Of a stretch of 64,000 nucleotides of DNA, positions 12,345-44,039 are shown piece after piece (positions within the stretch are counted from its first letter, which is position 1; every line of letters starts with the position of its first letter). Source of the DNA: a bacterium (GTDB lineage Bacteria > JAHJDO01); the NCBI GenBank assembly GCA_030652805.1, contig JAUSPT010000024.1, positions 37,050-101,049 on the forward strand, given 5' to 3'. The notes under the pieces are model-generated. The model had not been told where the DNA came from. It was given only the letters and a program-made list of their open reading frames with translations, and did no database searches. Made by a program: the position numbers and the translations under genes.

Positions 12345-12423
12345 GATATTACAAATTAAGGCAATATAATTTGAGAAATATAGTTATGTTAAAGATACAC
12401 TCTCTCAAAAAGGAGTATTAACT

Positions 12424-14626: not shown

Positions 14627-16696
14627 ATGCAAATTGGAGATGTTAAAAAGATAAGAAATATCGGCATTATGGCTCATATTGATGCGGGTAAAACGACAAC
14701 AACAGAAAGAATGCTATTCTTTGCAGGCAGGATACATCGCATAGGCGAAGTTCATGACGGGGCTGCTACAATGGACTGGATGGAACAGGAAAGAGAGAGG
14801 GGAATAACAATCACGTCTGCGGCCACAACATGTATCTGGCGTAAGCATCATATTAATATCATTGACACTCCAGGGCATGTAGATTTCACTGCAGAGGTAG
14901 AACGAAGTCTAAGGGTTTTAGATGGTGCAGTAGCAATATTTTGCGCAGTTGGCGGTGTAGAGCCGCAAACTGAAACTGTATGGAGGCAGTCGGAAAAATA
15001 TAAAATTCCCAAGATTGTCTTTATTAATAAAATGGATAGAATTGGAGCAGATTTTTTTGCTGTACTTGAGATGATAGACAAGAAACTTGGAGTTAACTAT
15101 GTGCCAATTCAGTTGCCTATTGGAAAGGAAGATAATTTTCATGGCATTATAGATATTGTGGAAGAAAAGGCATTTTTCTTCAATCCGGAAGACGCTATGG
15201 AAGAGCCGAAAGAACGAGAAATTCCAGAAGACTATGTAAAGATGACGAAGAAATATAGAAATGAGCTAATAGAAAAACTTGCTGACACAGATGACAGTCT
15301 CATGAATAAATATATTGAAAATCAGCCCATTACAATAGAGGAAATTAAGAATTCTCTTAACAAAGCAACTATAAAATCCGAGATATTCCCTGTGCTGTGC
15401 GGCGCAGCTTTCAAGAACAAGGGAGTCAGGAGGCTTATGGAAGCTGTTGTCGATTACCTGCCAAGTCCAGAAGAGGCCCCCCCTGTAGAAGTTATAGATA
15501 GTGATTCAGGAGAAAAGAGCCTGTTCAGTTTCGGAGAAAAAAAGGATTTATTGGGGCTCGCTTTTAAGATTGCTGTTGACCCTCATATTGGAAAACTTGT
15601 TTATTGCAGAATATATTCGGGTTCAATAAAACAAGGTGAATATGTTTTCAAGGCAGGGTCATCAAAGAAAGAAAGAATATCCCGTATTGTAAAGATGCAC
15701 GCTAATAAAAAAGAAGCTGTGAATAGTCTCAGCGCAGGAGATATAGGAGCAATAATCGGGCCAATGAACATTACTACTGGAGATACAATATGTAAACAAA
15801 ATTCTAATCTTTTTCTCGAGAACATAGAATTTCCAACACCTGTAATTTCAGTGGCAATTGAAGCAAAGAACAAGATTGAGCAAGAGAAACTTTCGGATTC
15901 CATAAGAAAATTATCTAATGAGGACCCGACATTTAATTTCTTTTTTAATGAAGAGACATCCCAAACTATTCTTTCTGGTATGGGTGAACTGCATCTTGAG
16001 ATCCTGGTAGATAGATTAAAGAGGGAGTTTAAAGTGTCTGCGAATGTAGGCAAGCCTAAAGTTGCTTTCAAGGAGACAATAACCAATATTCAGGAAGAAA
16101 AATACAAACATCAGAAGCAAACTGGTGGAAGAGGGCAATTTGCAGAAGTACACATAGAACTAATTCCTGCAAAGAGAGGTGAAGGGTTCGAATTTATTAA
16201 TGATATCAAGCAGGGAGCTATTCCAAGAGAATTTATTCCTGCTGTTGAAAAGGGCTGTATTGAGGCAATGGAAGCAGGAATTTTTGCGGGATATCCTGTA
16301 ATTGATGTAAAAGTAAGATTATTTGACGGAAGATTTCACGAAGTTGACTCTTCTGAAATAGCTTTTAAGGTAGCCGGGTACTATGCATTCAAAAGTGCGT
16401 TTATGAAGGCAGGTCCAAGGCTTGTTGAGCCGATTATGACAGTAGATATATCTACTCCGGAAGAGTATTTTGGTTCAATCATGTCTGATATAACATCAAG
16501 AAGAGGTAAGATAATCCTGATAGAAAAAAAGGCTAAGAGCCAGTTAATAAAGGCTGAGGTTCCGCTTATGGAACTTTTCGGTTACGCTACACAGCTGAGA
16601 TCACTATCACAGGGACGAGCAACAGAGTCTATGCGGTTTGAAAGATATGACAAAGCTCCTCCGCATGTTGTCAGTAAAATAATAGAAGACAATTAA
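14627..16696 (+). CDS. fusA: elongation factor G (likely a second EF-G paralog; not in an rpsL-rpsG operon)
   Basis: [13 protein letters not shown]1 motif, [16 protein letters not shown] domains IV/V ([13 protein letters not shown]). Confidence 0.85.
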
Positions 16697-25717: not shown

Positions 25718-25830
25718 TTTACAATACAGATGGTCGCAGATGAAAAATCGCAGATGGGTACAGATGTTCAATCTGCGCTGGTCTGTGAAAATAATCTGCG
25801 CTAATCTGTGAAAGAGGGGAGGTGGAAAAA

Positions 25831-26037
25831 ATGGCAGTAGAAAAAGCAATCGGTTCATCTAGTTTGGTTGAGGTTATTGACAGAATCCTTGACAAGGGTG
25901 TTGTGGTTGATGCATGGGTTAGAATTTCTTTAGTTGGTATTGAATTACTCGCTATTGAAGCAAGAGTCGTAGTCGCATCAGTCGAGACATACCTGAAGTA
26001 TGCTGAAGCAATTGGTCTAACCGCAACAGCAGCTTAA
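25831..26037 (+). CDS. gvpA: gas vesicle structural protein GvpA
   Basis: [60 protein letters not shown]. Near-identical to the canonical GvpA core; AGGTGG RBS before ATG 25831 (ORF track starts at upstream GTG). Confidence 0.95.
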
Positions 26038-26226: not shown

Positions 26227-26925
26227 ATGGGAAGTGCCGAGGAAATGAAGAATTTGGCGCAAGGAATTGTTTCTTCTTATCAGGCCAGAGTTTCTGAAGT
26301 AGCCACGGTCATGGACAATGCTCACCAAATTCTTGAAGATTTTAAGCTCAAAAGAAGTGAGATGAGCAGTCAACTTAGAGAAACCCTTGCCAATGGAGAG
26401 TCTCTCAGAAAAAAGGATTTTGATAATATGATGAAAGGCATCCTTTCCCATCAAGAAGAAAGAGAAAAAGAGGTAAAAGATTTATTAAAGACTTTTTTTG
26501 AAGAACAAAAAGAAATAGCTGAAGCCATTAGGAAGAATTTGGCCGAAGGCGAAAGCGTGAGAATAAGTGATTTTAAAAAGATGCTCCAGGATATTCAGGC
26601 AAGGCAGAAACTCAGGGAAAATGAAGTAAGAACGACCCTAAAGGAATTTCAGGAAGGACATAGGGAGATGGCTGAGTCTTTGCACAGCCTTTTAAATAAA
26701 GAAGAGTCCTTACGGATTGAGGACTTTAAAGAGATGCTAAAAGATATTCGTTCAAGACAGATAGAGCGGAAAAAAGAAGTCAGAACCAAACTTGATGAAT
26801 TCAGGAAAGAACATCAAAATATGACTTCCGAATGGAATAAACTAACCGGTCTTATGGCCGAGAAAAGAGCCAGCAAGCTGAGAGGAGGTGAGAGAGAGGA
26901 AAAGTTGGAAGTTGCCAGGGTTTAA
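26227..26925 (+). CDS. tandem-repeat coiled-coil protein, candidate GvpC-like gas vesicle scaffold/strengthening protein
   Basis: Three ~50-aa repeats of pattern L..GES.R..DFK.ML.DI..RQ..RE.EVR..L.EF...H..M; hydrophilic, predicted all-helical; directly downstream of gvpA as gvpC is in cyanobacteria. Confidence 0.5.
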   Translation: MGSAEEMKNLAQGIVSSYQARVSEVATVMDNAHQILEDFKLKRSEMSSQLRETLANGESLRKKDFDNMMKGILSHQEEREKEVKDLLKTFFEEQKEIAEAIRKNLAEGESVRISDFKKMLQDIQARQKLRENEVRTTLKEFQEGHREMAESLHSLLNKEESLRIEDFKEMLKDIRSRQIERKKEVRTKLDEFRKEHQNMTSEWNKLTGLMAEKRASKLRGGEREEKLEVARV

Positions 26926-26995
26926 TTTTGGATCCTGGGTAAGTAACCTGATGTATGGGAACTAAGAAACTAGAAGTTTAAGAGGAGGAATAAAG

Positions 26996-28027
26996 ATGGG
27001 AATAGCAAGTGATATCAAAGCACTGGGTGAGGACATTGTTGCCTCTTATGATACGCGAGTAAGGGCGATAGGTGTGCTTGTCAAGGACGTCGACAAAATG
27101 CTTAAGGGTCTTCATACGGATCATAAGAGTATGGCTGCCAATCTTAAAGCTGGCCTTAACAAGGGAGAAGAAGATAGGCTCAATGCCTTTAAGCCAATGA
27201 TAGCAGAAATTCAGAAGCGGACAAAGGAAATAGAAGTCTATGTTAAAACTCTGCTCAAAAAGTTTCACAGCGAGCATATGGAAATGTCTGCCAATCTTAA
27301 TGCCTCTCTTGCAAAAGGAGAAGAGGATCGACTTAAGGACTTTAGAGCAATGATGGCTGATGTTAAGAAGTTTGTAGCGGATATGGTTGATACGACTGCG
27401 AAACTGATGAAGCAAATTCAGGCTGAACAGAAAGATAGAAATAAAGGAGTAGCTGATCTCCTTGCAAAGTTTGCGCAAGACCATGCATCTATGGCAGATG
27501 AGCTTAGAAAAAGCCTTGCAAAAGGAGAAACAAACAGGCTTGAAGACTTCAAAAAGATGATAGATAGTATCCAAAAATATGTGGCTGATGTAATTAGTGC
27601 GACTAAGCAGCTAATTAGCGAAATTCAAGCAAGGCAGGATGAGAGAAACAAAGAGGTTCTTGCTCTCTTACAGGCATTCCAGGCCGAAAGAGAAAAGATG
27701 GCTGCTAACTGGCAGGCTCTGGCTGCAACAATGGAGAAGAGAAGAGGCGGTAAGCCGATTCCAGTTAAAGTAGAAGCCAGGCAGGAAGTAAAGACTGTTG
27801 AAGAGGCAGTGAAAGAAAAACCCAAAGCTAAACCTAAGGCTGGGCCTAAACCCAAAACACCTGAAGGTCAGATATTAGCTTTGCTTAGGGAGCATGCTGA
27901 AGGCATGAGCTTGCCGAATTTAGGAAATGAAGCAGGCTGCCACTTTATAAAGCTGACCAGTCCAATGAGAGGTCTGCTGGATAAAGGCAAAGTTAGAAAA
28001 GAAGATAATCTTTACTTTATTGCTTAG
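26996..28027 (+). CDS. tandem-repeat coiled-coil protein (paralog of 26227 gene) with K/P-rich linker and C-terminal winged-helix-like domain
   Basis: Repeats ...SLAKGEEDRLKDF.AMM.D..K.V.D...; KPKAKPKAGPKPKTPEG linker; C-terminal ILALLREHAEGMSLPNL... Confidence 0.5.
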   Translation: MGIASDIKALGEDIVASYDTRVRAIGVLVKDVDKMLKGLHTDHKSMAANLKAGLNKGEEDRLNAFKPMIAEIQKRTKEIEVYVKTLLKKFHSEHMEMSANLNASLAKGEEDRLKDFRAMMADVKKFVADMVDTTAKLMKQIQAEQKDRNKGVADLLAKFAQDHASMADELRKSLAKGETNRLEDFKKMIDSIQKYVADVISATKQLISEIQARQDERNKEVLALLQAFQAEREKMAANWQALAATMEKRRGGKPIPVKVEARQEVKTVEEAVKEKPKAKPKAGPKPKTPEGQILALLREHAEGMSLPNLGNEAGCHFIKLTSPMRGLLDKGKVRKEDNLYFIA

Positions 28028-28043: not shown

Positions 28044-28364
28044 ATGAGCGAGATAAAATGTGCTTTCTGCAAAGGCACGGGCAAGGATCCATTTGATCTT
28101 CTATCCGAGCTTGCTGTCTGCCAGGTTTGCGGAGGCAGGGGTAAAGTTGAGGTAAAAGAGCCGGCAATCAAGTGTGTCTTTTGTAGCAGCACCGGTATCT
28201 ATCCTCGTAGTCGAGTTACCTGCACTGTATGTAATGGCAAAGGAATGGTTGCGGTTAAAGGCGCGACTGACGAGTGCCCTAAGTGCAAAGGCACAGGCAG
28301 AGCAATAGATAGCGGACTTCCCTGCATTAAATGTGGAGGCAAAGGGGTCGTTTCAAAAAAATGA
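28044..28364 (+). CDS. DnaJ-type cysteine-rich zinc-finger (CxxCxGxG repeat) protein
   Basis: Six CxxC(x)GxG motifs (CAFCKGTG, CQVCGGRG, CVFCSSTG, CTVCNGKG, CPKCKGTG, CIKCGGKG), as in DnaJ CR domain. Confidence 0.7.
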   Translation: MSEIKCAFCKGTGKDPFDLLSELAVCQVCGGRGKVEVKEPAIKCVFCSSTGIYPRSRVTCTVCNGKGMVAVKGATDECPKCKGTGRAIDSGLPCIKCGGKGVVSKK

Positions 28365-30127: not shown

Positions 30128-30148
30128 CAACTGCATAGGTGGTTGAGA

Positions 30149-30541
30149 ATGAATTGGAACACATTTGACTTTAAAAGCGGGAAAAGCGGAAGAACCAGGT
30201 CAGGACGAAGGATAGGTGAGATTTTGGAAGGGGATAAGTTTAGATGTTCATTATGCAGAGGCACAGGGATATTACCCCGAACCAAGGGCACAAGATGTCA
30301 TGTATGTAAAGGCTCAGGCATAGTTTCCTTAACCGGACCGGCAGTAGTATGCGCTTACTGCAAAGGCAGAGGCGATTATCCGCCGAGGACAAGTCTTACC
30401 TGTACGGTTTGCGGAGGGAAGGGTTTAGTTAGCATTACCAAACCCATTGAAATATGCGAACATTGCCGGGGAACCGGTGCTGAGCCGGGCAATAAACTAC
30501 CTTGCTTAAAATGCAAAGGTAAGGGTGTGATTACAAAATAG
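30149..30541 (+). CDS. DnaJ-type cysteine-rich zinc-finger protein (paralog 2)
   Basis: CSLCRGTG, CHVCKGSG, CAYCKGRG, CTVCGGKG, CEHCRGTG, CLKCKGKG; AGGTGG RBS, ATG at 30149. Confidence 0.7.
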   Translation: MNWNTFDFKSGKSGRTRSGRRIGEILEGDKFRCSLCRGTGILPRTKGTRCHVCKGSGIVSLTGPAVVCAYCKGRGDYPPRTSLTCTVCGGKGLVSITKPIEICEHCRGTGAEPGNKLPCLKCKGKGVITK

Positions 30542-30558: not shown

Positions 30559-30816
30559 ATGAAAATAGAAGAAGTAGAGAAGGCGATCACAGATTTCTTT
30601 AAGAGCAGTCTTGGTGGAAAGGCAAAAGTAATAAAGATAGTAAAATCTCAGGATGGCTGGACAGGTGAGGCAGAGATTTATGAGGAGAGTTCATTTATTA
30701 AATCTTTAGGACTATCTACCAGAGTTCAGGATAGGAATATTTACGGGATTAAATTGACTGATGCCTTGGAAGTGGTCTCTTACGCGCGAAAAGAGGGATC
30801 TGTAAAAGAGGAATAA
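30559..30816 (+). CDS. GvpO/GvpR-like gas vesicle protein
   Basis: DGWTGEAEIYEESSFIKSLGLSTRVQDRNIYGIKLTDALEVVSYARKE resembles GvpO core (GW.A.VEVVER...DTQD..GRYE..LD...V.GY.R.RR). Confidence 0.55.
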   Translation: MKIEEVEKAITDFFKSSLGGKAKVIKIVKSQDGWTGEAEIYEESSFIKSLGLSTRVQDRNIYGIKLTDALEVVSYARKEGSVKEE

Positions 30817-30831
30817 AAATAAGGAGCAATT

Positions 30832-31128
30832 ATGACTAATAAAATGGCTCATGCTACTGAGGCGACGAATCTTGCGGATATTTTAGAAAGGGTTCTGGAT
30901 AAGGGGATAGTTATTGCCGGGGATATTAAGATCCAAATTGCCGACATTGATCTTCTCACTATCAAAATAAGGCTGTTGGTTGCCTCTGTGGATAAGGCAA
31001 TGGAGATGGGGATAAATTGGTGGCAGCAGGATTCTTATCTTTCTTCTGAAGCAAAAGAGAAAGAAATAGAGAACGAAAATAAATCCTTAAAAAAGAGATT
31101 AGAACGGTTAGAAGCGAAGATAAAATAA
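30832..31128 (+). CDS. gvpJ: GvpA-family minor gas vesicle protein (GvpJ/GvpM-like)
   Basis: ANLADILERVLDKGIVIAGDIKIQIADIDLLTIKIRLLVASVDKAMEMG, GvpA fold with extended C-terminus. Confidence 0.85.
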   Translation: MTNKMAHATEATNLADILERVLDKGIVIAGDIKIQIADIDLLTIKIRLLVASVDKAMEMGINWWQQDSYLSSEAKEKEIENENKSLKKRLERLEAKIK

Positions 31129-31132
31129 AGAA

Positions 31133-31441
31133 ATGACCAGTATGGAGCGTGAGACTTTAGATGTTATTGCTGAAAATGAGGAGAGAGTCCATTATTACTT
31201 AATAGCTCAGGAATTAAAGGTAAGCGCTCATTATGCCTATGTGATTTGCAAAGGGCTTGAGAGAGACAAATATGTTGATTTTGATACATTTAAAGGAGTA
31301 TGCAGCTTAACAGAAAAAGGTAAAGAAACAGTGGAAGAGAATTGGCTTTTTAAACTTAAGCAGCAAAAGCAGAATATTCAGAAGAGAAGAAAAGAAAATA
31401 AGGGAAAAATTTCTAAGAATGTTGAGGTTGTAAATTATTAA
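31133..31441 (+). CDS. small winged-helix DNA-binding protein (MarR/ArsR-like)
   Basis: LDVIAENEERVHYYLIAQELKVSAHYAYVICKGLERDKYV. HTH + wing pattern; basic C-terminus. Confidence 0.5.
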   Translation: MTSMERETLDVIAENEERVHYYLIAQELKVSAHYAYVICKGLERDKYVDFDTFKGVCSLTEKGKETVEENWLFKLKQQKQNIQKRRKENKGKISKNVEVVNY

Positions 31442-31444
31442 GAC

Positions 31445-31657
31445 GTGAGTATAACAGCTACAGAATTAGAAATACTAAGAATTATAAAAAAGAAAAACGG
31501 TTTAATATCTATGAAAGAGTTAAGCAGTAAAGCAGGGTTTGAGATAGGCTATACCTACATGTTGTGCAAGTCCCTGGAAAAGCAGGATTGTATTGGGTTT
31601 TTTACCCATTCATCTTGTAGAATAACTGCAACAGGCAAAGGTCTGATAAGCGAATAG
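31445..31657 (+). CDS. small winged-helix DNA-binding protein (paralog)
   Basis: ELEILRIIKKKNGLISMKELSSKAGFEIGYTYMLCKSLEKQDCI. Same HTH pattern as the 31133 gene. Confidence 0.5.
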   Translation: MSITATELEILRIIKKKNGLISMKELSSKAGFEIGYTYMLCKSLEKQDCIGFFTHSSCRITATGKGLISE

Positions 31658-31666
31658 GAGGTCGAA

Positions 31667-32053
31667 ATGAGCTGGCAAACAATGGAGTGGAATAAACAAA
31701 AGATCGGGCGCAGAGGAGAGATTTTAACCAGGGATGTCTACAGATGCGGTTTTTGTAGAGGCACAGGTCTCCTTTCTTCTAAAAAGGGGATAAAATGTCC
31801 TGTTTGTTTAGGTAATGGAGAGGCAAAGGTTTCATCTCCGGCTGTAATTTGCGCTTATTGCAATGGAACGGGAAAAAGACATCCTCGAACTACCCTCACC
31901 TGTACTGTTTGCCGAGGAAAGGGTGTTGTGAGCGTGGGAACTTCTGATATTGAAGCTTGTCCTACTTGCAAAGGAATAGGCAGGGAACGCGGCAGGACTC
32001 TTCCCTGTTTAACCTGCAAAGGGACAGGCGTTATTCCTAAAAAGAAGAGATAA
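31667..32053 (+). CDS. DnaJ-type cysteine-rich zinc-finger protein (paralog 3)
   Basis: CGFCRGTG, CPVCLGNG, CAYCNGTG, CTVCRGKG, CPTCKGIG, CLTCKGTG. Confidence 0.7.
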   Translation: MSWQTMEWNKQKIGRRGEILTRDVYRCGFCRGTGLLSSKKGIKCPVCLGNGEAKVSSPAVICAYCNGTGKRHPRTTLTCTVCRGKGVVSVGTSDIEACPTCKGIGRERGRTLPCLTCKGTGVIPKKKR

Positions 32054-32607: not shown

Positions 32608-33543
32608 ATGGCATTAACAGGATTAAGAGAAGATGCGTTAAAACTGGTTTTATTTGGAGGGAAGGGCGGCGTAGGAAAGACAACCTGTGCATCAAGCACA
32701 GGCTTTTATTTAGCAAAGAATTTCAGGACATTGCTTTTTTCAACAGACCCGGCACATTCGCTCTCTGATAGTTTAGAGCAGGACATTGGCAGTAACATAA
32801 TAGAGGTGAAAGGGACAAAAAACTTGAGTGCTTTTGAAGTAAGCGCAGAAAAAGCTCTTTCTAGATTCAAGATAGAACATGAAGACCAGATAAAAAAGAT
32901 TTTGGATACCTCTACCTATTTAGATGAGGAAGACATTGATTCCATCTTTGATTTGCCTATTCCCGGGATGGATGAAGTGATGGGGTTCAAGACAATTGTT
33001 GATTTAATAGAGGAAGCTAAGTTTGACAAGTACATTGTAGATACCGCGCCTAGCGGTCATGCGATGAGACTTCTGACTTTACCTGACCTGCTGGATGACT
33101 GGGTCAAGGTTATGGCAAAGATGAGATGGAAGTATAGATATATGGTGGAAAGATTTGGCGGAAGATATAATCCTGACGAAGGCGATGATTTCTTATTAAC
33201 TATGAAAAAGACCGTAAAGAGAATAGAAAATCTTCTTAAGGATCAAAAAAGGTGTGAATTTATAGCAGTTACCATTCCGGAAGATATGGCAATTTTAGAA
33301 ACCGGGAGAATGATAAATAATTTGAACGACTATGGCATAAAAGTGAGGCAATTAGTAATAAATAATGTTGTAGAATCGCAGGATTGCGGATTTTGTAGAG
33401 AAAGAAGAAAAGGGCAGGAGAAACATATAAACAGGATAATGAAAAAGTTTGATGACTTAAAAATAACAATTGTCCCTTTGCAATCAAGGGAGGTTAAAGG
33501 TATAGATACCTTGAATAATTTTAAAGAGATGCTATTTCAATAA
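32608..33543 (+). CDS. ArsA/Get3-family P-loop ATPase (single ATPase domain)
   Basis: Deviant Walker [11 protein letters not shown]; ArsA/Get3 signature [12 protein letters not shown] (cf. DTAPTGHTLRLL); [11 protein letters not shown]. Confidence 0.75.
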
Positions 33544-35711
33544 TGGGAAAAAAGAACTCAGCTCTTACACTTAAAGTAAAAGAAGCTCTGCCAAAGGATG
33601 CAGGAAGGGCTATCGCCAGGATTGACCCGGAAGATATGAAAACTCTTGGAATAGAAGTGGGCGAGGTTGTAGAGATTGACGGTAAAAGAAAAACTCCTGT
33701 CAAAGCAATGCCATCTTACGTAGAAGATAGAGGGAAAAAGACTATTCAAATGGATGGAATATCCAGAGAGAATGCGCAGATTGGACTGGATGAAAAGGTA
33801 AAGATCAGCAAGATTGACTATAAGTCTGCTAACAAAATCACACTCTCGCCTCTAACTGCATCAAGTCTGCTTCAAAGAGATAAAGATACCAGATATATCG
33901 GGTCGCTTATGGAGGGGCTTCCTGTAACCAGCGGCGATAGGATTAGAGCTACGCTTTTTGGCTCAAGATCCTGCGATTTTAAGGTGCTGGATACTATTCC
34001 TGCGGGTGTAGTTTTAATAAACCAGACTACTTCAATAAAGATGAAGACAAAGGGAGCAGAAAAAGAGAGGTCAGCCAAAGTTTCATATGAAGATATTGGC
34101 GGGCTTGATAAGCCAATCCAAAGAATCAGGGAGATGATAGAGCTTCCTTTAAAATATCCTCAAGTATTTGAAAGATTAGGAATTGATCCGCCGAAAGGCG
34201 TTTTTCTCCATGGTCCTCCGGGTTGTGGAAAAACCTTAATCGCTCGGGCCGTGGCTAATGAAACAGATGCTTATTTTACCAGCATAAGCGGACCGGAAAT
34301 TATGGGGAAGTTTTATGGGGAGAGCGAAGCTCGCCTCCGTTCCATATTTGAAGATGCTCAGGCACATGCGCCTGCTATCATATTTTTGGATGAGATTGAA
34401 TCTATTGCTCCAAAAAGAGAAGATATGGGCGCTGAAAAACAGGTTGAGCGAAGAGTAGTAGCTCAGCTTCTGGCTCTGATGGATGGATTAGAATCAAGGG
34501 GACATGTTGTTGTTATAGCTGCAACCAATTTGCCTAATACAGTTGATCCGGCTTTGAGACGGCCAGGCCGTTTTGACAGAGAATTATCTATCCCTATTCC
34601 GGATAAAAATGGGCGATTAGAAATTTTACAGATACATACAAGAGGAATGCCTTTGGCAGAAGATGTGAGTTTAGAGAGATTAGCTGAGATTACTCATGGA
34701 TTTGTGGGCGCGGATTTAGAATCATTAGCAAGAGAAGCAGCAATGTCAGCGTTAAGAAAGATTTTGCCTAAGATAGATTTTGAATTAGCGGAGATACCTT
34801 ATGAGACTCTTTTAGAATTGCAGGTTACTATGGACAATTTTTTGGAGGCATTGAAAGAAATAGAGCCTTCTGCTATCCGCGAGGTATTTGTTGAGATTCC
34901 TGATGTCCGGTGGGATGAGGTTGGTGGATTAGATGAAATAAAGAAGTCTTTAATTGAAGCCGTGGAATGGCCTCTTAAATACAGCAGATTATTTGAGCAC
35001 GTCAAAACAGAGCCGCCTACAGGCATTTTGCTCTCCGGTTCTCCGGGTACGGGAAAGACTTTGGTAGCCAAAGCATTAGCTACTGAGAGCGGGGTTAATT
35101 TTATTTCTGTTAAAGGCCCTGAGATTATAAGTAAGTATGTGGGTGAGTCAGAACGCGCTGTCCGTGAGATATTTAAAAAGGCAAGAATGGCTGCTCCATG
35201 TATTTTATTCCTGGATGAAATAGACAGTCTGGTTCCTACACGCGGAAGCGCTGGAGGGGATTCACAGGTAACCGAGAGAGTGATCAGCCAATTTCTTACC
35301 GAACTTGGAGGGATAGAGAGATTAAAGGGCGTAGTAGTGATTGGTGCGACCAATAGATTAGATATGATAGACACCGCAGTATCAAGGGCGGGAAGGTTTG
35401 ATATCCATTTAAACTTTCCATTACCTGATAAAAAGACAAGACTCAGAATTTTTGAAATTCATGCTAAAGACAAACCATTAGATAAAGATGTAAATTTAGA
35501 AAAATTAGCAGATCAAATAGAAGAATATTCCGGAGCAGATATTGAAGCTGTTTGCCGTCGCGCGTCTATGCTTGCTATAAGAGGATATATAGAAAATCAA
35601 AAGGCAAAAAGCAAAGATCAAAAATTAGAACTCAAGATATCAAAGAGCAATTTTGAAGAAGCTATTAGTTTACTAAAAGAACAGAAGAACGAAATAAAGG
35701 GGGGTGGTTAA
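33543..35711 (+). CDS. CDC48/VCP-like AAA+ ATPase (N-domain + D1 + D2)
   Basis: CDC48-N-like start; two AAA modules with Walker A GPPGCGKT and GSPGTGKT, Walker [20 protein letters not shown] regions; archaeal/eukaryotic-type architecture. Confidence 0.85.
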
Positions 35712-35712
35712 A

Positions 35713-35847
35713 ATGGCAGGGATTATTGAGAAAATTAAAAACTTTTTTAGCAGCATGTGTATATGCAAAGTTAAGAAGGAAAAAGAAGAACCTAAACTGC
35801 AACAGGAAGAGCCTAAGGTAGAGGAAAAACCTGAAGAACAAAAATAA
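35713..35847 (+). CDS. small protein with K/E/P-rich tail (44 aa; not in ORF track)
   Basis: MAGIIEKIKNFFSSMCICKVKKEKEEPKLQQEEPKVEEKPEEQK; tail resembles that of the 14209 gene product; AAGG..GGTGG RBS. Confidence 0.3.
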   Translation: MAGIIEKIKNFFSSMCICKVKKEKEEPKLQQEEPKVEEKPEEQK

Positions 35848-35862
35848 TAAACAAGGTGTAAA

Positions 35863-36867
35863 ATGGCTGAAATTGGAAAATATATTTATGGAATTATAAG
35901 TTCTAATACGAACTTCCGCCTTTTTATCTCGGAGGATAGCATACATGCGATTCCTTATCAGGATATCTCGGCTGTAGTAGGAGACTCTGAGATAATCGAT
36001 TACACCTGTATATCTAAAGGTGATGTGGCGAAAATGCTGGTCAGGCATCAAAAGGTTATTGAAGGCGTTATGAGTTCAGGGCTTACAATTATTCCTATGA
36101 AATTAGGTACATTCGCTGTTTCGGAAATTGAGGTCAAAGATATTTTGGATAGAGGATATAACCTCATTAAGGAGATTATGGAGAAGACGGGCGATAAAAT
36201 AGAGATTGATATAGTCGCCACATGGAGTGATTTTCCTTCAATTCTTAAAGAGGTTGGGGAAGAGAGAGAAATTAAAGAATTCAAAGAAAGGCTTTTAGCT
36301 AGTCCAAAAGAGATAACCATAACTGAGCAAATGAAAGTAGGGCTTATGGTTAAGAAAGCATTGGATACAAGAAAAGAAAAATATGCTGAAAAGATAAAGA
36401 ATGCACTGGAAACTCTAAGCCAGGATCTAAAGTTGCATGAACTCATGGACGATAATATGGTTGCTAATATAGCCTTTTTGATAAATAAAACCCGGCAAAT
36501 AGAATTTGATAAAAAGATAGAAGACCTAAACACTGAATTTCACGATGAGTTAAATTTTAGATGTATAGGTCCGCTTCCGCCTTATAGTTTCTATACGCTT
36601 GAGATAAAAAAGATGAAATTTGACGAGATTGATTGGGCAAAAAAGAAGTTGAGGTTAAATGATTTTGCAGGTAAAGATGAAATTAAGAAAGCTTATCGAA
36701 GAGTAGCCGCCTCTTCCCATCCTGATAGAAATCCGGATATACCGGCTAAAATTTTTGATGATGTAAACAAAGCTAATAAGATACTTATTGATTATTGCAA
36801 AGCTCGTGAACAAGCAGGCGAGGAAGAATTTGAAAAGAACGCAATATTGATCAAAGTGAGGGAGTAA
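35863..36867 (+). CDS. GvpF/GvpL-family protein fused to C-terminal DnaJ J-domain
   Basis: N-terminal YIYGIISS...AIPYQDISAVV (GvpF/L hallmark); C-terminal KKAYRRVAASSHPDRNPD...ANKIL J-domain with HPD tripeptide at nt 36718-36726. Confidence 0.8.
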   Translation: MAEIGKYIYGIISSNTNFRLFISEDSIHAIPYQDISAVVGDSEIIDYTCISKGDVAKMLVRHQKVIEGVMSSGLTIIPMKLGTFAVSEIEVKDILDRGYNLIKEIMEKTGDKIEIDIVATWSDFPSILKEVGEEREIKEFKERLLASPKEITITEQMKVGLMVKKALDTRKEKYAEKIKNALETLSQDLKLHELMDDNMVANIAFLINKTRQIEFDKKIEDLNTEFHDELNFRCIGPLPPYSFYTLEIKKMKFDEIDWAKKKLRLNDFAGKDEIKKAYRRVAASSHPDRNPDIPAKIFDDVNKANKILIDYCKAREQAGEEEFEKNAILIKVRE

Positions 36868-37646: not shown

Positions 37647-38414
37647 ATGGAAACGGCTGTAAAACGAGGTAAATATATATATTGCGTAATTGAGTCAAAT
37701 CAAGCCCAATCATTCGGTTCGCCGGGAGTTGGCGGAAGAGGGGACGAATTGCATACTATTTGCTTTAACGATATAGCAGTTGTAGTGAGCAATTCTCCAA
37801 TAATAAAATACCCGGTATCAAGGGAGAATACACTTGCTCATGAAAAGGCAATTGAGGAAGTGATGGAAAAATATGTAGTTTTGCCGGTAAGATTTTGTAC
37901 AATTGCTGAAGACGAGAAGAAGGTAAAAAAGATTTTAGAAAGAGAGCATGATAAATTCAAAGATTTGTTGGATGAGATCAAAGGGAAAAAAGAGCTCGGA
38001 TTAAAAGCAATATTTAAAGAGGATGTTATTTATAAAGATATCCTGGAAAAACATGAAGGCATAAGAAAGTTAAAAGAAGGGCTGGCTTCTAAACCCCCTG
38101 AAGCGACCCATTACGAACGTATGGAAATAGGAAAAATGGTGGAAACTGCTCTACAAAAAGAAAAAGAGATTTGTGAAAAGGAAATTATTAATGCTCTTTT
38201 GCCTTTGGCAGTAGAGCATAAGACGAATAATACCTATGGTGAACGAATGATTATTAATGCGGCTTTTTTAGTGGAGAAAAGCAAAGAAACAGAATTTGAT
38301 CAGAAGGTTCAGGAACTTGACGGAAAATATGGTAATAAAATAAAATTTAAATATGTGGGCACATTACCGCCATTTAATTTTGTCAATTTAGTAATTAATA
38401 TAGGAGAGTATTAA
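37647..38414 (+). CDS. GvpF/GvpL-family gas vesicle protein
   Basis: KYIYCVIESNQAQSFGSPGVGGRGDELHTICFNDIAVVVS; YVGTLPPFNF; ATG 37647 directly after upstream stop. Confidence 0.8.
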   Translation: METAVKRGKYIYCVIESNQAQSFGSPGVGGRGDELHTICFNDIAVVVSNSPIIKYPVSRENTLAHEKAIEEVMEKYVVLPVRFCTIAEDEKKVKKILEREHDKFKDLLDEIKGKKELGLKAIFKEDVIYKDILEKHEGIRKLKEGLASKPPEATHYERMEIGKMVETALQKEKEICEKEIINALLPLAVEHKTNNTYGERMIINAAFLVEKSKETEFDQKVQELDGKYGNKIKFKYVGTLPPFNFVNLVINIGEY

Positions 38415-38653
38415 TGTTTTTAATTGATGATATATTCCTTGCGCCATTGAAAGGGGTGGTTTGGCTTGGCAAGAAGATGAATGAGGTTATAGAGAAGGAA
38501 ATCTCTGATGAAGGGCGGATAAAAGAGAAACTTATGGAATTACAAATGCAGTTTGAACTTGATGAAATAAACGATGAAGAATATAAGAAGCAGGAAGAAG
38601 AACTTTTAGCGCGATTGGACGCTATTAGAAAAGCAAAAGAAGAGGAGGTGTGA
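38414..38653 (+). CDS. gvpG: gas vesicle protein GvpG
   Basis: MFLIDDIFLAPLKGVVWLGKKM... typical GvpG N-terminus; ATG overlaps upstream TAA. Confidence 0.8.
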   Translation: MFLIDDIFLAPLKGVVWLGKKMNEVIEKEISDEGRIKEKLMELQMQFELDEINDEEYKKQEEELLARLDAIRKAKEEEV

Positions 38654-38913
38654 AGATGGCTAATATGGAAGAAGCTAAGAAAGCAGTTGCAGAGTTTTTA
38701 AAAAAGACCCTTAATGTCAAAGATGTAAAGGTTATTAAGGTTGGAAAGAGCGAAAAGGGCTGGGAGACAGAAGCAGAAGTATATGAAGAAAGTTCATTTA
38801 TAAAGGCTCTCGGACTTCCAACAAGAGTAAAGGACCGGAATATCTATGAGATTAAATTGGATGATAAGTTGGAAGTAGAGTCTTACGAACGTAAAAAGGA
38901 AGAGAAGGAATAG
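38650..38913 (+). CDS. GvpO/GvpR-like gas vesicle protein (paralog of 30559)
   Basis: KGWETEAEVYEESSFIKALGLPTRVKDRNIYEIKLDDKLEVESYERKKEE. About 55% identical to 30559 product. Confidence 0.55.
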   Translation: MKMANMEEAKKAVAEFLKKTLNVKDVKVIKVGKSEKGWETEAEVYEESSFIKALGLPTRVKDRNIYEIKLDDKLEVESYERKKEEKE

Positions 38914-38959: not shown

Positions 38960-39325
38960 ATGGCTTTAGAGGCGACAAGAGGTAATGGTGGTGATAACGG
39001 AACTCTGGTTGACGTAATAGACCGCATTCTGGATAAGGGTTTAGTCATCAATGCGGATATTACTGTATCCGTAGCGGGGGTTGAATTACTTGGTGTAAAG
39101 GTTCGGGCAGCTCTGGCTTCATTTGAAACCGCAGCAAAATATGGTTTAGAATTCCCCTCAGGCACTAATTACGAAACCGCGGCATGGAAAGAGGCGGCAA
39201 AAGGTAAAGATGAATGTCCGCAGTGTGCTAAAAAGGTACTGACAGATGAACTGATGAATAAAGGATGCCCTTGGTGCGGCTGGCAAAGCGCTAAGGCAAA
39301 ACTAAAACCAAAACAAATAGTCTAA
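38960..39325 (+). CDS. GvpA-family domain fused to C-terminal zinc-ribbon
   Basis: [48 protein letters not shown], then CPQC...GCPWCGW. Confidence 0.75.
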   Translation: MALEATRGNGGDNGTLVDVIDRILDKGLVINADITVSVAGVELLGVKVRAALASFETAAKYGLEFPSGTNYETAAWKEAAKGKDECPQCAKKVLTDELMNKGCPWCGWQSAKAKLKPKQIV

Positions 39326-39330
39326 ATTCT

Positions 39331-39597
39331 ATGAGCAAAAAGGAAAAATCGAGATTAGGCGGGTTTAATCTTCTAGGCATTCCTCTAGACCCTACTTTGG
39401 GTGTAGGAGATAAGGTTTTAGACCATGTAGATGAATCAATAGAAGCTGAAAAAAGAAAAGAAGCGGGTTCTAAATATTGGGCCCGTTGCTCTTTCTATTA
39501 CACTGTTTGCCCTAAATGCAGTCGTAAGGTAATTACTGAAGAGTTGGAAGAAAAGGGATGTTTTGTTTGTGGATATAAACCTAATAAGGAGGAGTGA
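39331..39597 (+). CDS. stand-alone zinc-ribbon protein homologous to C-terminus of the 38960 gene product
   Basis: CPKCSRKVITEELEEKGCFVCGYK parallels CPQCAKKVLTDELMNKGCPWCGWQ. Confidence 0.5.
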   Translation: MSKKEKSRLGGFNLLGIPLDPTLGVGDKVLDHVDESIEAEKRKEAGSKYWARCSFYYTVCPKCSRKVITEELEEKGCFVCGYKPNKEE

Positions 39598-39600
39598 CAT

Positions 39601-39990
39601 ATGCGCGTTAAAATTAACACAAATAGAGATATAAAAAGTAACATGGACATTGCAAGAAAACAGAAGATACCATCTATGACATCAAAGATAGAGGATATAG
39701 TAAAGGCAGAATTGGAAGAAGAATTTGGACCAACATTGACAGAGGAAGAACTCTCTAAAATAGCCCAGAAGGAAAAAGAGAGAAAAGTAAAGCGGGATTT
39801 GGCCTTGAAAAACTCTAGGATGAAAATAATGAGGGTAAAGGAAAAGGCGAGGGAGACTCAGAGGATAAGACAGGAAATAGCTAAGGGGAAAACTTGCCAC
39901 CACATCAAGGATTTTAGCGCGGGGGCAAACCTCAAAGTTAGCGGAGATTCTAGAAAAGAGAGGTTTAAGAAAATGAATATTGAATACTAA
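39601..39990 (+). CDS. hypothetical highly charged protein
   Basis: ORF in gvp locus; K/E/R-rich; no motif recognised. Confidence 0.4.
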   Translation: MRVKINTNRDIKSNMDIARKQKIPSMTSKIEDIVKAELEEEFGPTLTEEELSKIAQKEKERKVKRDLALKNSRMKIMRVKEKARETQRIRQEIAKGKTCHHIKDFSAGANLKVSGDSRKERFKKMNIEY

Positions 39991-40629: not shown

Positions 40630-40953
40630 ATGCCAATAGATATTGATGAGGATAATCTAAAACACGGGGTTTTAGGGCTGGTTATTGCTTTAGTGGAGGT
40701 AATTAAAGATGCTCTTAATCTCCAGGCAATGAAACGTATGGAGGGAGGATCTCTTACGGAAGAAGAGATGGAACGATTGGGCGAAGCCCTTATGGATTTA
40801 GATGTGGCAATTGAGGATATAAAAAAGGAACAGGGTGTTACTGAGTCAGTTAAATCCGTAAGGGATGGATTGGATAGTATTGTGGATGATGTATTAGACA
40901 AGATGATAAATCCAGAAAGATGGAGGAAAGAAGCAGAGGAGAAAGGAATTTAA
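40630..40953 (+). CDS. gvpK: gas vesicle protein GvpK
   Basis: GVLGLVIALVEVIKDALNLQAMKRMEGGSLTEEEMERLGEALMDLD matches GvpK signature (GLAKLVLTVVELLR..LERQA.RR...GSLT.EE.ERLGEAL.DLD). Confidence 0.8.
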   Translation: MPIDIDEDNLKHGVLGLVIALVEVIKDALNLQAMKRMEGGSLTEEEMERLGEALMDLDVAIEDIKKEQGVTESVKSVRDGLDSIVDDVLDKMINPERWRKEAEEKGI

Positions 40954-40954
40954 G

Positions 40955-41719
40955 ATGAATGAAGCAAGATATCTTTATTGTATAGCCGATGGAAATAAAA
41001 AGATAACATTTGGCAATATTGGAATAGAGGATAGCGAAGTCTACACTATCCCTTATGAAGATTTATGCGCTGTAGTTCATAATTGTCCTTCAGAGCCCTA
41101 CAAATCAGAGGATAATGAAGTGGTGAAAAAATGGGTAACGGCTCACCAGAAGGTTGTTGATACTGTCTGGGGAAAATTTGGCACTGTCTTACCATTGGGT
41201 TTTGATACCATAATTAAAGGCGAGAAGGGGACTACCCCGGATAAGAATATGAAGAATTGGATTAAAGAAGATTACAAAAATTTAAAAGAAAAGATAGCTA
41301 AGCTTAAAGGCAAGGCTGAGTATGGGGTTCAGATTTCCTGGGACCCTAAGGTGATTGGAGAAAAGTTAATAGAAAGTAATCAAGAGATTAAGAAATTAAA
41401 TGAGGAGATAAAATCCAAATCCAAGGGTCTTGCTTATATGTATAAACAGAAACTGGAGAATCTCTTGAAGAAAGAGATGGAAGTGGAGGCGGAAAGGCAT
41501 TTTAAAGATTTTTACGAGAAAATTAAAAAATGTGCGAATGAAATTAAAGTAGAAAAGACTAAAAAACTTGAAGAAGGAAAACAAATGCTGATAAACCTTT
41601 CTTGTCTTTTACCCAAAGAAAAAAGCAAGGTATTAGGCGAGGAGTTAGAAAAGATTAACGATATGGAAGAATTCTACGTTCGCTTCACTGGTCCCTGGCC
41701 GCCATATAGTTTTGTATAG
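40955..41719 (+). CDS. GvpF/GvpL-family gas vesicle protein (4th paralog)
   Basis: RYLYCIADGNKKITFGNIGIEDSEVYTIPYEDLCAVVH; FTGPWPPYSF. Confidence 0.75.
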   Translation: MNEARYLYCIADGNKKITFGNIGIEDSEVYTIPYEDLCAVVHNCPSEPYKSEDNEVVKKWVTAHQKVVDTVWGKFGTVLPLGFDTIIKGEKGTTPDKNMKNWIKEDYKNLKEKIAKLKGKAEYGVQISWDPKVIGEKLIESNQEIKKLNEEIKSKSKGLAYMYKQKLENLLKKEMEVEAERHFKDFYEKIKKCANEIKVEKTKKLEEGKQMLINLSCLLPKEKSKVLGEELEKINDMEEFYVRFTGPWPPYSFV

Positions 41720-41727
41720 GATAAAAA

Positions 41728-42834
41728 ATGGAACCGACCCGCAATGTTCAGGCAACTTTGGTTGATTTATTGGATAGGATACTGGATAAGGGGCTGGTAA
41801 TCAACGCCGATATTATCATCTCTGTGGCTGGTATTCCTTTAATCGGCGTTAATTTGAGAGCGGCGTTAGCAGGAATGGAGACTATGCTTAAATACGGGGT
41901 GATGCAGTCCTGGGATGAGAAGAGCAGGGCATGGGAGAGGGAACATCAGAAGAAGGCTCTTCCTTCTCTGGTTGAAGGGGAGAAGATCGCCCTGAAAATA
42001 TATGGTTCTTATTATTATAGTAAAGGAATATATAATGCCTGGAAACCAGGCTATTTTTATTTAACTAATAAAAGGCTTATTCTTCACCGTCAGGATTTTG
42101 ATGAAATCACCTTTCAGATACCATTAGAAAAAATAAAAGCATTAATAGTGAAAGAGGAAGAGCATTTTGTTAAAGAAAAGAAAAAACAGGTGCTTTATCT
42201 TATGGATAGACAGGATCAAGCGCATCGGCTTAGCGCAGTAGAGGCAAACCAATTAAAAGAGGCTATTGAACAAAGAATAAAGGATATGGGACTTTGTCTG
42301 GAAGAAAATCCTGTTCTTCCAGAGTTTGTGGATGAGCGAATTGCAGGTTCGCTGATGGAAGAAGAAAAGGTTAGTCATCAAGGGAAGAAAGTGTGGTATT
42401 TAGTGCCGCCTGAAGGAATTCAACAAGAGACCTGGAGACCGGGTCATCTCTATCTTACCAATAAAAGATTATTTTGGTGGTATGATTTTGATAAAAGAAT
42501 AGTTTTTGATGTTTCTGTTGATAAAATAGTTGGCGTTAATGCCGAGATGAGAAAAACAAGCGGTCTTGATAGTAAGAAAGAGAAAATCCTTGATATACTA
42601 TACGGGGTTAATTCAACAAAAAGAACAGCTTCTTTTGCCGGAAAGGAAATAGATGAATGGGCGGAAGCGCTAAACAGGATTGTTCCCGGCAAGATAAATG
42701 AGGAAATCGAAACCTGCCCCCAGTGCGGCAGGCCCGCCCCGGCCAAAGAATTATTAGAAGAGAGTTGCCAGAGCTGTGGCTGGGTCAGCCCTAGATTAAA
42801 AAAGAAGATAGCTCAAGCGGCTTTATCAGCATGA
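41728..42834 (+). CDS. GvpA-family domain fused to two GRAM/PH-like domains and a C-terminal zinc ribbon
   Basis: N-terminus ATLVDLLDRILDKGLVINADIIISVAGIPLIGVNLRAALAGMETMLKYG (GvpA fold); two W(K/R)PG(Y/H)(F/L)YLTNKRL modules (GRAM/bacterial PH signature); CPQCGR...CQSCGW. Confidence 0.7.
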   Translation: MEPTRNVQATLVDLLDRILDKGLVINADIIISVAGIPLIGVNLRAALAGMETMLKYGVMQSWDEKSRAWEREHQKKALPSLVEGEKIALKIYGSYYYSKGIYNAWKPGYFYLTNKRLILHRQDFDEITFQIPLEKIKALIVKEEEHFVKEKKKQVLYLMDRQDQAHRLSAVEANQLKEAIEQRIKDMGLCLEENPVLPEFVDERIAGSLMEEEKVSHQGKKVWYLVPPEGIQQETWRPGHLYLTNKRLFWWYDFDKRIVFDVSVDKIVGVNAEMRKTSGLDSKKEKILDILYGVNSTKRTASFAGKEIDEWAEALNRIVPGKINEEIETCPQCGRPAPAKELLEESCQSCGWVSPRLKKKIAQAALSA

Positions 42835-44039
42835 GAAGTTATTTAGATACTATAAGAAAACCGGTTAATTTACCTTTGCTTCAGGGCGAAGAAGTGCTTA
42901 AGTATTTTACGGCGAGCTACGATGTTGGGAGTTCACTTGCCTCATCCTGGAGACTGGGAAATTTATATCTTACCAATAAGAGACTGCTTTTTGTCCAGGG
43001 AAGAAAGATACTATTTGAGGGCCTGCTCAGCCAAATAAAGACTATAAATATAGTAAAGAGAAGATGGATTTTGGGTAAGAAAGTAAAACAACTAAGTATA
43101 GTATCTGAAGGCAGGAGAGCGCCATATATTGCCATAAAAGACCCTGAAGAATGGAAAAAAGCAATCCTTTCTGATCCACAGTCCCCAGTCCATAACTCGC
43201 AACCTGATGAAGTAATTTTAAAAGGAAGGGGTGGTTATTTAACTCCCGGTCAATCAAAGTGGAGGCTTGGCACTCTTCTCCTTACCAATAAAAAACTCGC
43301 ATTTTCCCAGTTGAGGGGAATTGTATGGGAGACGCCACTCAGCAGTATTAAGGGTTTAAGAATAGAAAAAAGAGTTTACGGGGTCAGTAAAAGTGATGCG
43401 ATATGTGTGGAATATGAATCTTTGGGTGAATTATTAAAAGCATGGATTATATCGCTTAATTTAGAGACTTGGAGAAAAGAGCTATATGAGAGAGTATTAC
43501 TAAAAGTAGATCGGGAGACATTAGATAAAATTGTTACCGAATTGGATCCAGGTTCAAAAGGGATACTCTGGTTTCTTTATGAGAACCGACACGCAAGAAT
43601 CGATATCTTAGCCAAGCTCATAAAGTCTCCTACCCATATGGATGTTTTACTTAAAATAAGGGAGATTATAAACCCAACAGCTGAAAAGCTCATCGGCTAT
43701 CCTATACTCTCATTCGAGAGTTCAAAAGTTGACTGGGAAACTGGCGAGAAAGTTACGTTTAGCTGGTGGCTCGCTGGTCAGCCTTATAGAGAGAAAATGG
43801 AGCCGCTTCTGGACATATTTGATGAGGATGCTGAGCTGGTAGTCTATTTAGAGATGGTAGGTATTAAAGAAGATAAGTTATGCTTAAGTGTGGTGAATAA
43901 CAAACTTATTATTGATGCAGATAAAAATTATCATAAAGAAATTTCTCTTCCCGCAGTGGTTAATACAAATAGTTTTACCAAGAGGTATAAAAATAATATA
44001 TTGGAAGTAAGGTTAAAAAAGGGAAAGTGTAACAGGTGA
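42831..44039 (+). CDS. two GRAM/PH-like domains fused to C-terminal Hsp20/alpha-crystallin domain
   Basis: WRLGNLYLTNKRLLFVQ and WRLGTLLLTNKKLAFSQ modules; C-terminal ACD LLDIFDEDAELVVYLEMVGIKEDKLCLSVVNNKLII...KRYKNNILEVRLKK. Confidence 0.7.
   Translation: MRSYLDTIRKPVNLPLLQGEEVLKYFTASYDVGSSLASSWRLGNLYLTNKRLLFVQGRKILFEGLLSQIKTINIVKRRWILGKKVKQLSIVSEGRRAPYIAIKDPEEWKKAILSDPQSPVHNSQPDEVILKGRGGYLTPGQSKWRLGTLLLTNKKLAFSQLRGIVWETPLSSIKGLRIEKRVYGVSKSDAICVEYESLGELLKAWIISLNLETWRKELYERVLLKVDRETLDKIVTELDPGSKGILWFLYENRHARIDILAKLIKSPTHMDVLLKIREIINPTAEKLIGYPILSFESSKVDWETGEKVTFSWWLAGQPYREKMEPLLDIFDEDAELVVYLEMVGIKEDKLCLSVVNNKLIIDADKNYHKEISLPAVVNTNSFTKRYKNNILEVRLKKGKCNR

Follow-up and report, generated by a model that had tools for sequence, protein, structure and literature searches.

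A conserved Cys4 ribbon on the minor gas-vesicle protein GvpJ and on its downstream neighbour: a candidate docking knob of the nucleation module

The question raised by this locus is why a protein of the GvpA gas-vesicle family should end in a small cysteine ribbon, and why the next gene should encode the same ribbon in a free-standing form. The locus lies in the window, the whole stretch of 64,000 nucleotides analysed here (positions 37,050 to 101,049 of the forward strand of contig JAUSPT010000024.1, assembly GCA_030652805.1, from a bacterium of the GTDB lineage JAHJDO01), in which the open reading frames (ORFs) and family searches delimit a single large plus-strand gas-vesicle (gvp) gene cluster at about 25.8-44.7 kb. 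Both genes, GvpJ-ribbon (38960..39325) and the gene here called R (39331..39597), were found where the first-pass annotation, made from the letters of the window alone, had placed them. The ribbon is widely distributed, it is embedded in a conserved gene module to which R is an optional addition, and it keeps invariant cysteines together with several invariant non-cysteine residues. It may represent a cytoplasm-facing docking knob on the nucleation proteins, read within the J-K-L-M module, with R as an optional adaptor or competitor, a reading to which a probability of about 0.45 is given.

The product of 38960..39325 (plus strand, 121 residues) belongs to the GvpA family, since the Pfam model Gas_vesicle (PF00741) matches its residues 15-53 well above the gathering score (E-value 5.2e-17, 62.1 bits versus a cut-off of 25), and its residues 12-62 align to the solved GvpA structures 8gbs and 7r1c. 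This core, consisting of helix 1 and a beta-hairpin, is encoded at 39002..39118, and the AlphaFold2 (AF2) model of the region places helices at residues 16-26 and 55-60 and strands at 28-38 and 41-52. The best NCBIfam model is halo_gas_GvpJ (NF046090) with 98.1 bits, followed by GvpM with 57 bits; the curated cut-off of 125 bits is not reached, NF046090 being an "exception" model tuned to haloarchaea. The gene order gvpJ-K-L-M is also present in the window. Because of the best model and of this synteny, the protein is assigned to the minor paralogue GvpJ and not to the main shell protein. Thus, the earlier proposal of a module added to a shell protein is borne out as regards a discrete conserved module on a GvpA-family protein, but the host is the minor GvpJ, while the main GvpA is encoded by a separate gene at 25822-26037. 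The start codon of the gvpJ gene is preceded by AGGAGG at 6 nucleotides upstream.

The ribbon itself occupies residues 86-108 of GvpJ (39215..39283, plus strand), with the layout C86-P-Q-C89, 13 residues, C103-P-W-C106-G-W108. The first-pass annotation had recognised the same succession of a GvpA core and the CPQC and CPWCGW knuckles; its spacer of 16 counts from the first to the third cysteine, the true inter-knuckle spacer being 13. In 60 full-length homologues, whose overall identity to the window protein is 68-84%, the residues C86, C89, C103, C106, P87, K91, W105, G107, W108 and S110 are invariant; the SAKAK tail that follows the ribbon is also conserved across phyla, and the pattern CxxC-13-CxxC is kept in 119 of the 120 best tail matches. 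Invariance of the cysteines along with P87, K91, W105, G107, W108 and S110 across many phyla fits a functional surface and not the fold alone. The AF2 model of this ribbon is strand-strand-helix with a pLDDT (predicted local distance difference test) of 76-78.

The gene R (39331..39597, plus strand) encodes 88 residues, identical to the protein Q7J67_01580 of a metagenome-assembled genome at NCBI. Its ATG lies 5 nucleotides past the GvpJ stop codon with no Shine-Dalgarno-like motif, an arrangement that points to coupled expression. Gly and Leu abound in the first 32 residues, and the ribbon, of the class R2 by class consensus, is found at residues 60-82 (39508..39576, plus strand) as C60-P-K-C63, 13 residues, C77-F-V-C80-G-Y82. 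A homologous ribbon behind a Gly/Leu-rich N-terminus, as it had been described before, is therefore the right account of this one protein, and it falls short for the family, in which two tandem ribbons are usual and the N-terminal peptide is conserved. The ORF is far from being restricted to the window: its homologues form 54 clusters at 90% identity and in many loci stand directly after the GvpJ-ribbon gene, while an exhaustive profile search gave 72 representatives at 50% identity out of 1.84 billion, with lengths almost always below 200 residues.

Most of the 54 homologues have 135-150 residues and two ribbons, in the usual order of N-terminal peptide, helix, ribbon 1 (CPSCGK...GCYxCGW), helix and ribbon 2 (CPKCGR...GCFICGY), with the cysteine columns invariant or at least 90% conserved. 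Aligned with them, the window protein shows a gap that runs cleanly and in frame from 'YWARC' to 'SFYYTVCPKC', in which ribbon 1 is removed and an orphan Cys53 remains; judged by this alignment, it is an in-frame deletion derivative of the two-ribbon family. Other one-ribbon forms exist as well (P0049, P0050, L057, L069), and a divergent branch has the shorter N-terminus M(V/I)FDPxSKxLLDxI. The conserved peptide of the window R covers residues 9-36 (39355..39438, plus strand), LGGFNLLGIPLDPTLGVGDKVLDHVDES, and corresponds to the near-invariant family peptide LGIPLDPTLGVGDKVLDHVDES. In the AF2 model of the two-ribbon homologue P0002, the peptide is predicted to be disordered (pLDDT about 40), and the ribbons are two independent confident beads (pLDDT 85-89), whose arrangement, with a predicted template modelling score (pTM) of 0.32, is that of beads on a string. 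A search with the tandem ribbons alone for fusions to other domains returned only the same small proteins.

The relationship of the two ribbons had been suggested from their cysteine spacing, and it was open to the objection that such spacing may coincide by chance. BLASTP aligns the GvpJ and R ribbons with 14 of 27 residues identical and 21 of 27 positive (E-value 1e-9), and when the four cysteines were fixed and the remaining residues shuffled, none of the 50,000 permutations reached the observed score (z = 7.2), so that the similarity is no artefact of the spacing. A third copy, overlooked in the first-pass annotation, is carried by the product of 41728..42834 (plus strand, 368 residues), where it has the layout C330-PQ-C333-13-C347-QS-C350-GW (residues 330-352, 42715..42783, plus strand, CPQC-13-CQSCGW). 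It matches the GvpJ ribbon with an E-value of 3e-7 and the R ribbon with 6e-5, with permutation z of 5.3 and 4.1, respectively. The three ribbons of the window are homologous. By classes, the GvpJ and GvpM ribbons are mutually closest, as are ribbons R1 and R2, and the DnaJ-type CxxC-13-CxxC modules of the same loci are far more distant from all four classes than these are among themselves.

The carrier of the third ribbon is a GvpM-type member of the GvpA family (PF00741 E-value 3.9e-17, 62.5 bits; best NCBIfam model halo_gas_GvpM, 97 bits) with further matches to the Vps36, PH, GRAM and bPH families; its ribbon stands behind the GvpM-type core and two PH/GRAM-like domains. The gene takes the last position of the J-K-L-M module and has an orthologue in the locus L004. 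The core and the position are those of haloarchaeal GvpM and bacterial GvpS, whereas the two PH/GRAM-like domains and the ribbon set it apart from the classical GvpM, a protein of about 70-85 residues. PH-like domains seem to be unusual on gas-vesicle proteins. The next gene (42831-44039, 402 residues) also encodes two PH-like regions, with an Hsp20/ArsA_HSP20-like C-terminus.

With two CxxC knuckles and four conserved cysteines, the element has the sequence character of a Cys4 zinc ribbon, and it is probably metal-binding, Zn and Fe being indistinguishable by sequence. For each ribbon AF2 gives strand-strand-helix at a pLDDT of 76-89, while Foldseek gave no significant ribbon match. The known families remain below their thresholds: DUF7560 (PF24441), whose cut-off is 27 bits, scores 14.3 bits on the ribbon of GvpJ and 14.4 bits on that of R, and Zn_ribbon_ACC (PF17848) appears only as faint precomputed matches in R homologues. 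The segments of the GvpJ, GvpM and R1 ribbons have a net charge of +2 to +3, and that of the window R is net neutral.

A survey of the databases for fusions between GvpA and zinc ribbons had been proposed as a check. The search with the GvpJ tail alone gave at least 358 protein clusters, and the tail was found in at least 422 genomes of Bacteria and Archaea in a scan of one genome per GTDB species. The bacterial carriers include Nitrospirota, Omnitrophota, Atribacterota, Dehalococcoidia, Bacteroidota, Actinomycetota, Bacillota, Desulfobacterota, Scalindua, Acidobacteriota, Thermotogota, Zixibacteria and Ignavibacteria, and the archaeal ones ANME-1 Methanophagales, Methanotrichaceae, Bathyarchaeia and Halobacteriota. 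Plasmids of the cultured Natrinema zhouii, Natronococcus occultus SP4 and Streptomyces sp. SGAir0924 carry it as well. The ribbon proteins are labelled in databases as 'gas vesicle protein' or 'hypothetical protein', and a full-text literature search combining gas vesicles with zinc ribbons or zinc fingers found no description of such fusions, which thus appear to be undescribed in the literature searched.

The gene neighbourhood was counted over the 80 best GvpJ-ribbon loci, that is, over ribbon-positive loci only. In 45 of the 49 evaluable loci, the 4.5 kb downstream of GvpJ-ribbon contain genes for GvpK, GvpF/L and a GvpM-type protein. Of the 31 loci whose upstream sequence extends over 9 kb or more, GvpG and GvpN were each present in 21, a Cdc48-like gene in 20 and GvpA in 18. 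R occurs within 2.5 kb of GvpJ-ribbon in 26 of the 74 evaluable loci, directly adjacent in 21 of them and in the two-ribbon form in 21. A ribbon on GvpM was seen in 25 of 45 loci, while 15 of the 45 have no ribbon besides that of GvpJ, lacking both R and a ribbon on GvpM. A coupling of R to the GvpM ribbon was considered and dropped, as the two-by-two table (10/5/15/15) gave no clear association. The suggestion of a soluble partner or competitor survives in so far as a soluble protein with the same module is encoded 5 nucleotides downstream; R is, on the other hand, not an obligatory partner of the GvpJ ribbon, because of its presence in 26 of 74 loci and of the 15 of 45 loci with the GvpJ ribbon alone, and it is at most an optional partner or competitor.

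The smallest modules were found on plasmid 2 of Natronococcus occultus SP4 (L086, 12001-14568) and on the Streptomyces sp. SGAir0924 plasmid (L087, 9977-12570). They consist of 4-5 genes for GvpJ-ribbon, a GvpM-type protein, GvpK and GvpL/F, with a TetR regulator flanking, and neither gvpA nor gvpN lies within 10-12 kb of them. These modules narrow any ribbon partner encoded nearby to K, L/F, M or GvpJ itself. ANME-1 (L008) and Methanotrichaceae (L035) have comparable modules that begin with J.

The reading of the ribbon as a docking knob draws on three circumstances, namely, its location at the partner-binding C-terminus of GvpJ, the invariance of its non-cysteine residues, and K, L/F and M as its only constant companions. 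It has been reported that GvpJ, GvpM and GvpS are missing from the wall of the cylinder and were detected in purified bicones (PMC10903477), that haloarchaeal GvpJ and GvpM both bind GvpL (PMC9501494), and that the C-terminal fragment J47-114 of Halobacterium GvpJ binds GvpG, GvpH and GvpL (PMC8716928). According to this proposal, a metal-stabilised Cys4 knob of about 27 residues (CPxC-13-CxxCG-W/Y) would take the place of the unstructured acidic tail of the classical GvpJ; the GvpA-like cores of GvpJ and GvpM would enter the wall of early bicones, and the C-terminal knob would be left exposed on the cytoplasmic face, where it would offer the assembly factors of the J-K-L/F-M module a rigid place to dock. 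GvpL/F would be the most likely and most parsimonious partner, with the product of 40955..41719 as the candidate in the window. R would be a soluble bearer of one knob in the window, or of two in most relatives, behind a conserved, presumably disordered and GvpG-like N-terminal peptide. By offering the same knobs, it would bind whatever reads those of GvpJ and GvpM, and might act either as an optional adaptor or as a competitor tuning the nucleation.

Among the known systems, GvpJ is the nearest family. The window protein shares with haloarchaeal GvpJ the core signature RAA(L/I)ASFETAA-YGL(E/D)FP-GT and the best NCBIfam model, and its cluster shares the J-K-L-M order with gvpFGHIJKLM of Halobacterium salinarum, in which the C-terminal half of GvpJ binds accessory Gvps (PMC8716928), the ribbon being located at that same end. 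Unlike it, the Halobacterium GvpJ of pNRC200 (98 residues) has no cysteine and ends in an acidic unstructured tail. Functions added at an exposed C-terminus are known from the 6 x 21-residue repeats of Anabaena GvpJ and the elongated C-terminus of Bacillus megaterium GvpA, which is bound by GvpU/GvpT (PMC10903477); these extensions are repeats or unstructured tails, with no Cys4 domain and no adjacent soluble copy. Thus, C-terminal additions to the GvpA family are known, while a Cys4 domain accompanied by a neighbouring soluble paralogue appears to be new. Haloarchaeal GvpC, which sits on the outer vesicle face, likewise has a metal-binding motif at its C-terminus, a zinc-finger domain for which split-GFP assays showed self-interaction (PMC9372576). 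Homology of the ribbon to this finger was rejected, for GvpC, a helical-repeat protein, has the motif CxxC...HxxxH and no sequence similarity to the ribbon, and the likeness is a functional analogy only.

The ribbon of AccD, a carboxyltransferase subunit, has two CxxC knuckles of the same type (PF17848), but the similarity is non-significant both by sequence and by the Foldseek E-value, and no homology is claimed. CPxCG knuckles are further shared with small zinc-finger proteins such as Brz and with DUF7560, the latter at about 14 bits, below its cut-off; to our knowledge, neither CPxCG zinc-finger proteins nor DUF7560 have a link to gas vesicles. As for the N-terminal peptide of R, it resembles the hydrophobic N-terminal segment of GvpG, a binder of the Halobacterium GvpJ C-terminal fragment. 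Its profile repeatedly matches GvpG N-termini below the threshold, and in hhalign the comparison gave P 3e-4 with a narrow alignment and P 0.005 with a broad one, by which GvpG ranked first among the 19 other cluster families compared. R is nevertheless unlike GvpG in having no C-terminal helical hairpin and no match in Pfam or NCBIfam, the GvpG profile PF05120 included. A GvpG domain in R was retained as a lead only, the similarity being not significant after multiple testing.

Several results weigh against the docking-knob proposal. R is absent from about two thirds of the GvpJ-ribbon loci and uncorrelated with the ribbon of GvpM, and its role may be peripheral. The mean pLDDT of the AF2 GvpJ-ribbon model is 58, a low overall confidence, and the orientation of the ribbon is thus not fixed. 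When the R model was compared with PDB structures by Foldseek, nothing matched at an E-value of 1e-3 or below, and no significant analogue was thus obtained. Finally, a GvpG-like N-terminus of R, with P between 3e-4 and 5e-3, is only suggestive.

An unlikely alternative is that the knob recruits nothing and acts by its bulk, barring GvpJ and GvpM from the regular ribs or keeping hydrophobic proteins soluble, with the consequence that both would be confined to the curved cone, the tip or the rib ends and that R would be an unrelated small helper. The exclusion of GvpJ, GvpM and GvpS from the cylinder and their presence in bicones agree with it, as do the lineage variability of C-terminal additions, exemplified by Anabaena GvpJ and B. 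megaterium GvpA (PMC10903477), and the loci in which the ribbon of GvpJ stands alone. Bulk, however, leaves unexplained both the invariance of K91, W105, W108 and the SAKAK tail across phyla and the retention of homologous ribbons on a soluble neighbour, and the classical GvpJ does the same job with no knob at all.

The docking-knob proposal may also be extended further, which is distinctly doubtful. The knob would then be the specific handle by which the J-K-L/F-M module builds the first bicone nucleus, and the tandem-ribbon R would serve as a bivalent bridge or ruler linking GvpJ with GvpM, or two nuclei, its GvpG-like peptide plugging into the GvpG site and the whole setting the number of vesicles started. 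If it were so, the modules of J-ribbon, K, L and M with no nearby gvpA in Natronococcus, Streptomyces and ANME-1 would imply that the nucleation machine is separable and horizontally mobile.

It is improbable that the Cys4 site, with Zn or a rubredoxin-like Fe, is a redox or metal switch that senses oxidation or metal supply and gates nucleation, so that buoyancy follows the redox gradient. Most carriers are indeed anaerobes (Atribacterota, Dehalococcoidia, ANME-1, Methanotrichaceae, Bathyarchaeia, sulfate reducers, Scalindua), the cluster is rich in further Cys4 proteins, including three of the DnaJ_CXXCXGXG type, and the nature of the metal cannot be told from the sequence. An anaerobe-specific redox role is, however, weakened by the carriers in the aerobic Streptomyces and the haloarchaea Natronococcus and Natrinema, and the J-K-L-M module has no conserved gene for a redox partner. 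There is equally little probability in the view that the window R is a decaying, functionless remnant which has lost one of two ribbons. The in-frame loss of ribbon 1 with the orphan Cys53 and the dispensability of R in most lineages speak in its favour; opposed to them are the intact ORF, the agreement of the N-terminal motif and of ribbon 2 with the family consensus, the existence of the other one-ribbon forms, and the tight spacing behind GvpJ. Least probable is that the ribbons bind RNA or DNA and that R, a small protein, regulates the gvp operon, by analogy with the AccD ribbon and with the transcription regulator Brz (PMC2253796), for although the sole tight structural match is the N-terminal zinc ribbon of AccD (8uz2_D, 31 columns, root-mean-square deviation 1.7 A, 29% identity), weak Zn_ribbon_ACC matches and positively charged GvpJ, GvpM and R1 segments are on record, and CPxCG small zinc-finger regulators exist in haloarchaea, the AccD match is non-significant (E-value 0.76), of the three carriers two belong to the vesicle wall and are not soluble regulators, the window R ribbon has no net charge, and the cluster already possesses two winged-helix-like proteins, 31133 and 31445, assigned by eye.

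The nucleation of gas vesicles and the role of the essential minor paralogues GvpJ and GvpM are an acknowledged question (PMC10903477), for which a compact invariant domain, probably metal-binding, at the exposed terminus of GvpJ, and often at that of GvpM too, provides a concrete handle. The ribbon domain is amenable to mutation, to use as a bait or tag and to modelling of complexes, and a soluble protein with the same domain should perturb the nucleation predictably. GvpJ-ribbon also marks a widespread, cross-domain type of gvp cluster with Cdc48-like and ArsA-like ATPases, DnaJ parts and Hsp20s, which resides mainly in uncultured anaerobes and of which no description was found in the literature searched. 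Such clusters may help the groups mining gvp clusters for acoustic reporter genes.

Around the two genes, the window shows the order J-R-x-Hsp20-K-F/L-M, in which x is a Lys/Glu-rich protein of 129 residues with no family match (39601-39990), situated between R and the Hsp20 gene and kept in just 7 of the 80 loci. GvpK (40630..40953, plus strand; PF05121, E-value 1.5e-18) is followed by the GvpF/L-family protein, assigned by phmmer (40955..41719, plus strand), one of four GvpF/L proteins of the cluster, the others being those of 35863, 36875 and 37614. Upstream of GvpJ-ribbon lie GvpG (38414..38653, plus strand; PF05120, E-value 4.3e-20) and the two duplicated GvpO-like genes (30559-30816 and 38650-38913, 85 and 87 residues). 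A separate GvpJ-like protein of the bacterial type begins at 30832, and gvpN is also among the cluster genes.

Directly 3' of gvpA, at 26227-28027, two repeat proteins of 232 and 343 residues are encoded, with internal repeats of about 40 residues and no Pfam family; judged by position, they could be GvpC-like outer-surface proteins. The larger has a Lys/Pro-rich linker ahead of its C-terminal end, and relatives of the two occur in about 20 related loci. Two small winged-helix-like proteins of 102 and 70 residues lie side by side at 31133 and 31445 (span 31133-31657), the Pfam scan of the 102-residue protein giving no match. Three small DnaJ_CXXCXGXG proteins (PF00684, also Anti-TRAP-like; 28044-28364, 30143-30541 and 31667-32053) consist almost wholly of the central Cys-rich repeats of DnaJ, with relatives in 23 of the 80 related loci.

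The central part of the cluster (32608-36867) encodes an ArsA/Get3-like ATPase, a Cdc48-like double AAA+ ATPase with the domains CDC48_N, CDC48_2 and two AAA, and a GvpL/F fused to a DnaJ J-domain, the only one of the four GvpF/L proteins with this fusion. Together with the Hsp20s, which are also encoded in the cluster, the ArsA-like and Cdc48-like ATPases and the J-domain GvpL/F form a whole chaperone set within a gvp cluster. Cdc48-like genes were found in 47 of the 80 related loci, and no paper that connects gvp clusters of this type with a Cdc48-like ATPase turned up in the literature search. In the related Atribacterota cluster L001, two paralogous double-zinc-ribbon (DZR-like) proteins of 74-75 residues, of another ribbon type, are encoded at 8995-9219 and 11459-11686, one ahead of GvpO and one after GvpK, besides a second, N-terminally extended GvpG-like protein at 8605-8976. 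Genes for 23S_rRNA_IVP four-helix bundles (PF05635) also stand in or beside such clusters, in L001 at 12613-12960 and in L004 at 12181-12531 and 15948-16331.

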